NCBI GenBank assembly: GCA_951406725.2
Contig: OX597818.1
Span: forward strand, 123,256,001-123,320,000
DNA length: 64,000 nt
Source of the DNA: Octopus vulgaris
Lineage: Eukaryota
Reading direction: 5' to 3'
The translations under genes and the position numbers were made by a program. Below, piece after piece: positions 10,179 through 10,935 of this stretch (its first letter is position 1; every line of letters starts with the position of its first letter). Below the pieces are notes generated by a model. The model saw only the letters and a program-made list of their open reading frames with translations, searched no databases and was not told the origin of the DNA.

Positions 10179-10255
<77 letters not shown>

Positions 10256-10378
10256 CAACAATTGAGGAATGGCCTTAATGGGCTATTCGATCCACTAGAA
10301 AGAGCAGCCAGGACTCAAACCGCCAAGTAGTAGTAATTCAGAAATTAGTGAAAATTTTAAAACATTTGCCCTAAATCA

Positions 10379-10477
10379 TCTTTAGACAATGCATTGTTTC
10401 GGTGTTTTTAATGGCAAACCAGCTTAATTAAATTAAATTAAGTCGATCCACCAAAGGCTACACCTTGTCGGTAAAGA
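10379..10477 (-). ncRNA. Type-I hammerhead ribozyme motif (core CCGACAA), unit 1 of a 458-bp tandem
   Basis: Minus strand reads UCUUUA-CCGACAA-GGUGU...ACACC-GAAA-CAAUGCAUU-GUC-UAAAGA. Stem I is 6 bp, stem II has a 5-bp base, and stem III is the palindrome ACAAUGCAUUGU. The core deviates at U4C and G8A. Confidence 0.75.
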
Positions 10478-10836
10478 GGCCAAGAGAGACGGATATACAC
10501 GAGGCATCTGTATCTATGCCCTAAAATTTTCAAAACTATCGTACTCGCGCCAACTTATCAGCAGTAAATATAAACTGCTGATTCAATTTCAGAATTAGTC
10601 AGAAAATCATCAATTAATCAATATAGGGTAGCAAAAAATTCAATAGAAATTTATCGCCACCAGCGGTCTAGTGAGAAAGAGAAAATAGTCATAGACTATA
10701 TATATAAATTCAGCAACAATTGAGGAATGGACTTAATAGGCCTTTCGACCCACTAGAAAGAGCAACCAGGACTCAAACCGCCAAGTAGTAGTAATTCAGA
10801 AATTAGAGAAAATTTTAAAACATTTACCCTAAATCA

Positions 10837-10935
10837 TCTTTAGACAATGCATTGTTTCGGTGTTTTTAATGGCAAACCAGCTTAATTAAATTAAATTAAG
10901 TCAATCCACCAAAGGCTACACCTCGTCGGTAAAGA
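10837..10935 (-). ncRNA. Type-I hammerhead ribozyme motif (core CCGACGA), unit 2
   Basis: Same fold as 10379-10477, exactly 458 bp away. The core differs from canonical only at U4C; GUC site. Confidence 0.8.

Follow-up and report, generated by a model that had tools for sequence, protein, structure and literature searches.

A hammerhead-bearing insertion in a (TA)n tract

We analyzed a 64-kb stretch of Octopus vulgaris DNA on contig OX597818.1, referred to here as the window. It contains an insertion built of two arms that meet head to head. The direct arm (10251..10935, minus strand) spans about 1.5 repeat units; it starts with stem I of a hammerhead motif, termed hammerhead A, and runs to a "near" 3' end that is fused to (TA)n. 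The inverted arm (10934..11245, plus strand, 312 bp) is 5'-truncated, lacks the 5' hammerhead core, carries a cut motif at C11015 and finishes at a "far" 3' end. The junction of both arms (10925..10933) falls inside the hammerhead core and stem II. A "tail" of about 94 nt (11152..11245, plus strand) lies between the near and far 3' ends. Target sequence flanks the element as (TA)n on the left (10158..10250) and (TA)n(TG)n on the right (11246..11319). An ORF check of the window found no ORF of at least 100 aa overlapping the element. A sequence-only reading had confined the element to 10251..10935. It overlooked three features that make up a Penelope-like signature: the inverted arm up to 11245, a pair of fixed 3' ends and a (TA)n target.

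On the minus strand, two occurrences of the cut motif GAAACAATGCATTGTC end 458 nt apart, at C10843 and C10385; a third, on the plus strand within the inverted arm, ends at C11015. Self-comparison gave 241 matches in 290 at lag 458, against 94 at lag 457 and 99 at lag 459. The sequence-only reading described head-to-tail units of 458 bp. That lag is real, but two whole units are not present: the direct repeat covers about 230 bp (11 mismatches in 228 bases) in an arm of about 1.5 periods. The cut-to-cut unit (10385..10842, minus strand) measures 458 nt instead of the family norm of about 474 because this copy has a private 15-nt deletion relative to copy L003, located at 10520..10521 on the minus strand.

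Hammerhead A is a type I motif at 10837..10935 on the minus strand, with a predicted cut after C10843. Stem I pairs UCUUUA (10935-10930) with UAAAGA (10842-10837). The core CCGACGA (10929-10923) carries a U4C change, and stem II (GGUGU at 10922-10918 with ACACC at 10863-10859) closes a 54-nt hairpin insert, followed by GAAA at 10858-10855. U4C is a natural hammerhead variant with lowered activity in vitro (PMC3088659). Hammerhead B (10379..10477, minus strand) has the same layout, with its cut motif at C10385, and a core that reads CCGACAA owing to G8A at 10466. We predict that hammerhead B is inactive because G8 pairs with C3, and because G8C abolished cleavage of the hammerhead of an anole Penelope-like element (PLE) (PMC11167929). 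The type I core (C3-A9, G12-A14, U16.1-H17 and three stems) was found at C10843, in its U4C variant, and in the family at large; a complete core was found neither at C10385 (G8A) nor at C11015 (5' core absent). Of the two minus-strand hammerheads originally proposed, the spacing matches the repeat lag, but only one has a complete core.

A scan of the window for type I hammerheads returned a single match, at C10843, and none in each of 10 shuffles, with a pattern so strict that it passed over other hammerheads present in the window. No Rfam model matched at the gathering threshold. The 12-nt stem III palindrome ACAAUGCAUUGU is present at 10844-10855 and 10386-10397 on the minus strand and at 11003-11014 on the plus strand. 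Fold prediction gave −15.1 kcal/mol for its duplex and no hairpin for the palindrome alone, which fits the earlier proposal that it is suited to dimeric folding. The fold of hammerhead A constrained to the active monomer has a predicted energy of −20.8 kcal/mol, 3.6 above the minimum of −24.4. The window copy is one insertion, a decayed member of a larger family with one G8A core.

The window holds further repeats. A different family is present at 61608-62371 and 51598-52028, where an inverted arm sits in (TA)n and the type I hammerhead has core CUGAAGA and a long stem II. Its CUGAAGA motifs lie at 62231 and 61748 (minus strand) and at 51887, with the palindromic stem III ACACGUGU. A third hammerhead element (55574-56280) has CUGAUGA at 55934 and stem III ACGUACGU; its inverted arm is 200 bp long, and its two ends lie in (TA)n. 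At 28121-31294 lies a satellite whose 169-bp unit recurs about 18 times, with 95-99% identity.

A dispersed family of tandem units with a conserved hammerhead

An exact pattern for the whole hammerhead matched the 2.8-Gb genome at least 554 times, and an exact stem III pattern at least 459 times; the reversed control of each had no match. The family is a dispersed, non-coding tandem unit of about 474 bp (35-36% GC) with a conserved type I hammerhead. Its subfamilies are 73-100% identical to L003. Units within one arm are 86-100% identical to each other, most of them at least 96%. Arrays with intact cores reach about seven units at other loci, with about 4-7 units at L028, L169 and L170.

We measured 29 cut-to-cut intervals at 18 loci. 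Tandem units do exist elsewhere in the genome, but not at the 458-nt period: 22 intervals are 468-475 and a single one, that of the window, is 458. Both cores are intact in 20 of the 29 units (10 loci). The 458-nt RNA that had been proposed as a product finds no backing here, given the G8A core at the locus, and a monomer of the family would measure about 474 nt. With its tandem non-coding units and conserved type I hammerhead, the family does fit the retrozyme label. Predicted circular folds of family units gave z-scores of −2.4 and −3.3.

We aligned 73 of 90 distinct hammerheads, omitting most second copies per locus and those cut by a junction. Core positions are kept in 70-73 of the 73 copies (G8 in 70), except at U4, N7 and H17. 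The U4 position is C in 42 copies and U in 31, and a young subfamily carries U4C. Intact copies include subfamilies with the cores CUGAUGA and CCGAUGA. Base pairing holds in 97.3% of cells, compared with 25-46% in slid controls. Stem I shows double changes (A-U/G-C), as do three pairs of stem II and also stem III, which takes the form of three different palindromes. Five pairs carry a double change, no excess over the 4.5 of shuffles, and the changes reflect a few subfamilies.

No coding sequence was found within arms at 121 family loci by ORF analysis and tblastn, whose matches fall outside the arms, and twenty loci of divergent subfamilies are likewise non-coding inside their arms. Contigs from four sequencing runs that we guessed to be RNA covered 25, 21, 16 and 22 of the family unit's 30 bins. 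A single contig of 486 nt had the unit in permuted order. We gave these contigs no evidential weight because tandem DNA would look identical and because contigs show neither ends, strand nor circularity. No description of the family was found in titles and abstract openings of the literature; supplements, Repbase and Dfam may already hold it. The main text of PMC13282606 nowhere mentions a hammerhead or ribozyme. A further hammerhead family (L032, L036, L038, L043, L044, L048, L049, L052 and L053) has the same 5' strand of stem I, a short stem II and, at L038, a spacing of about 362 bp.

Insertions end at two fixed positions

We examined insertion anatomy at all 66 loci, on four contigs, among the first 100 listed of 380 matches to a 20-nt pattern common to both arm types. 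We excluded two arms at the edge of L121 that belong to another, distant array. The 3' ends fall into two classes: 52 of the 104 arms have a near end (unit position ~130-150), 50 have a far end (~226-238) and 2 end elsewhere. Thus 102 of 104 arms use one of two sites about 90 nt apart, leaving a tail of 85-100 nt. Arms pair head to head in 37 cases, and 34 of these combine a near with a far end; one is far with far and two include an unclassed end. Among classed pairs the near-far combination accounts for 34 of 35 (p=2e-9). No tail-to-tail pair was found among the 37 arm pairs. Both arms of one locus usually belong to the same subfamily. (TA)4 adjoins 96 of 104 arm ends against a background of 7%, a count inflated at near ends by the element's own TA run.

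This anatomy matches that of PLE insertions, which comprise partial tandems, an inverted 5'-truncated copy and a one-sided tail (PMC8557442). In PLEs the tail is the distance between two internal start sites of reverse transcription, and both DNA strands are cut (PMC11167929). PLE hammerheads with a palindromic helix III, and pairs of them on opposite strands, are also on record (PMC4209133).

Autonomous PLEs in the same genome

A very young autonomous PLE lies at L180 1567-3702 (G000:C1:64217300-64227200), with an intact 711-aa ORF. The Atlas neighbors of this ORF, at 0.96-0.99, carry GIY-YIG, HTH_animal and RVT_1, while the ORF had no match in Pfam or PDB. By its motifs we take the element to be Neptune-like. 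Identity among its copies is 99-100%, and a pattern for its tail matches 1743 times. L180 carries a hammerhead motif and has two 3' ends 70 nt apart. In a sample of 29 L180 loci, counted by eye, 21 of 23 resolved pairs combine near and far ends in (TA)n, where one arm of each pair is far by construction because the sample was keyed on the tail. Most short L180 insertions consist of two arms fused inside the hammerhead. A chimera at L193 1877-2253 joins an L180-like terminal repeat and inverted stump to the L107 sister family on the same strand, possibly through a template switch.

A second coding PLE family is represented at L096 2021-2580 and L091 4369-6900, with an 843-aa open frame, a long 3' region and ends about 175 nt apart. 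Its hammerhead, at L096, has U4C, a long stem II and a palindromic stem III. Pfam was blank for this ORF as well. One arm of the non-coding 474-bp family adjoins a decayed PLE coding fragment, head to head, at L057 4733-5990.

We searched for an autonomous element homologous to the family unit. None was found by blastn of 40 loci or by profile search, and no detectable sequence is shared between the unit and L180 or L096. No pLTR sequence in common with the family was found in the PLE loci sampled, including those from a protein search. A 15-nt core pattern had 81 matches against 13 in its control, and 24 of the 40 examined were chance or another family. The profile search returned one new match, L107 (E 1.8e-15), which belongs to a sister family. 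This sister (L191-L215, seed L107 1470-1845) is non-coding, about 509 bp long, and has a long-stem-II hammerhead and two 3' ends; no PLE protein match was found in 25 of its loci. We noted a short likeness between the far end of the family and the near end of L180, which may be chance and was given no weight. The PLE partner is thus inferred from insertion anatomy alone.

Arms tend to stop one unit upstream, just 3' of the cut

The 5' ends of arms bear on the form of the template RNA. On the first pass, before the first cut site, 77 arms enter the stretch of unit positions 1-47: 18 of them end within it and the other 59 continue. One unit further upstream, 10 of 15 arms stop in unit positions 1-51, just 3' of the upstream cut. 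Two arms make a third pass over positions 1-47, and both stop. The upstream stops exceed those elsewhere in that unit (10/15 against 44 of 350 at-risk bins, p=4e-6) as well as those over the same sequence on the first pass (10/15 against 18/77, p=0.002). Positions 48-94 show no such contrast between passes. The upstream counts rest on 15 arms at risk, and the stop hazard rises already from position 150. The refined 5' ends, two of which are ambiguous fold-backs, spread over positions 2-41, which rules out a sharp stop right at the cut.

The read-through in 59 of 77 first passes indicates that the downstream hammerhead was mostly uncut or religated. Since a circle has no 5' end, the upstream stops favor a linear RNA that begins near the upstream cut, and they hint that the usual template is linear RNA, predicted to be cut once, and not a circle. 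The window arm reads through two cut sites. Together with the longer arrays, this suggests occasional use of longer or circular templates. At 3 of the 66 sampled loci, one strand carries two complete hammerheads.

A model for insertion and its alternatives

The family is a dispersed, non-coding hammerhead repeat, and we consider it probable that it is a non-autonomous PLE of the animal non-LTR retrozyme kind, copied into (TA)n by the enzymes of autonomous PLEs. The reverse transcriptase and GIY-YIG endonuclease of such an element would likely copy the unit into (TA)n tracts. Each target strand would be nicked, with one strand priming synthesis at the internal near site and its counterpart at the far site some 90 nt downstream. 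The two cDNAs would then read through the uncut downstream hammerhead and be joined head to head at their stopping points. With less confidence, we propose that the template would usually be a linear RNA whose 5' end coincides with the upstream hammerhead cut or lies slightly 3' of it, and that a minority of longer or circular templates might regenerate copies with at least two hammerheads, such as the window copy. The full scheme, in which the copies record priming of both strands at two fixed internal sites, one per strand, and an RNA 5' end set by hammerhead cleavage, is offered tentatively and could well be wrong.

The last step has a serious competitor. The 5' stop may instead mark where transcription starts, or how long a few donor loci are, with hammerhead cleavage playing no part in mobilization; we regard this as quite possible, short of probable. 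Ribozyme mutants of the anole PLE insert normally in vitro, and no RNA-seq reads of that element ended at the cut (PMC11167929). The stops in our data are diffuse, and the young subfamily carries the weaker U4C core. Against this, conservation of the core and stems extends over divergent subfamilies, and a single donor does not account for the 10 stopped arms, whose identity to the reference ranges from 82 to 99%.

Less likely is a classic rolling-circle retrozyme, whose monomer of about 474 nt would be released and circularized, with the circle as the normal template for reverse transcription. The sequence-only reading had inferred a linear or circular RNA of 458 nt. The multi-unit arrays, the 20 of 29 units with two intact cores, the near-identity of units within arms, the circular-fold scores and the window arm that passes two cut sites all agree with it, and retrozymes of mussel, coral and axolotl yield circRNAs (PMC7229834). 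Yet a ligated circle has no 5' end, and the arms preferentially stop just 3' of the second cut, which speaks against a circle as the usual template. Loci with two complete hammerheads on one strand are few, and in vitro cleavage failed for 8 of 9 Xenopus retrozyme dimers (10.64898/2026.07.22.740005). A circle may be a by-product or a minor template.

It is improbable that the copies are nothing more than terminal repeats left by truncation of an autonomous PLE, with coding copies outside our sample. PLE fragments with hammerheads most commonly arise in this way, L180 produces stumps of this sort in large numbers, and the genome matches listed are only the best or first ones. But in many subfamilies the long arms run unit into unit, and the tail leads directly into the following hammerhead. 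The lack of coding sequence inside arms at 121 loci excludes, as far as sampled, a simple truncation of a coding element. Local tandem duplication, or a satellite with a chance hammerhead look-alike, could draw on the AT-rich sequence and the blank Rfam search, but is refuted by hundreds of dispersed copies, fixed ends and covarying stems.

Relation to known elements

On the features tested, the family belongs with the animal non-LTR retrozymes, itself a known class. It shares with them a non-coding tandem unit below 45% GC, one type I hammerhead per unit, a palindromic stem III, a range from monomers to multimers and co-occurrence with PLEs (PMC7229834; 10.64898/2026.07.22.740005). Its unit of about 474 nt exceeds the 170-400 nt of the first-described animal retrozymes and falls inside the 51-972 bp given in 10.64898/2026.07.22.740005. 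It differs in its stem II insert of about 55 nt, in U4C in young copies, in that most copies have fewer than two units and an inverted arm, and in that no pLTR homolog was found. The window copy lacks the two complete hammerheads that 10.64898/2026.07.22.740005 uses as a criterion. The plant LTR retrozymes carry a type III hammerhead in their LTRs, and the motif here is type I.

With endonuclease-bearing PLEs the family has in common partial tandems, an inverted 5'-truncated copy, a tail at one end, two internal start sites, an AT-rich or microsatellite target and a hammerhead near the 3' end (PMC8557442; PMC11167929; PMC4209133). Its tail of 85-100 nt is longer than the 30-40 nt of the PLE literature and the 70 nt of L180. 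An autonomous PLE would have an ORF for reverse transcriptase and GIY-YIG between pLTRs, and no ORF was found inside arms at the 121 loci. The MRC1-type elements of Chlamys are likewise non-coding PLE parasites, with pLTRs and multicopy head-to-tail insertions (PMC8557442). These elements generally share 3' sequence with autonomous families, in a clade without canonical hammerheads (PMC8557442), whereas our family has a hammerhead and no homologous partner was found.

Animal retrozymes have been proposed to be non-autonomous PLEs (10.64898/2026.07.22.740005). In the literature cited here, their mobilization by PLEs is argued from co-occurrence and pLTR phylogeny; here the insertion anatomy matches that of a young autonomous PLE in the same genome, and L180, with its intact ORF, is a candidate for the enzyme. 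For PLE hammerheads, whose cleavage proved dispensable in vitro, the surplus of arms ending just 3' of the upstream cut offers a testable hint that cleavage defines the template. If this is true, the copies would preserve in the genome a footprint of in vivo hammerhead cleavage in the course of mobilization by a Penelope-type enzyme, and the retrozyme would spread mostly through once-cut linear RNA, sharing no detectable sequence homology with its helper.
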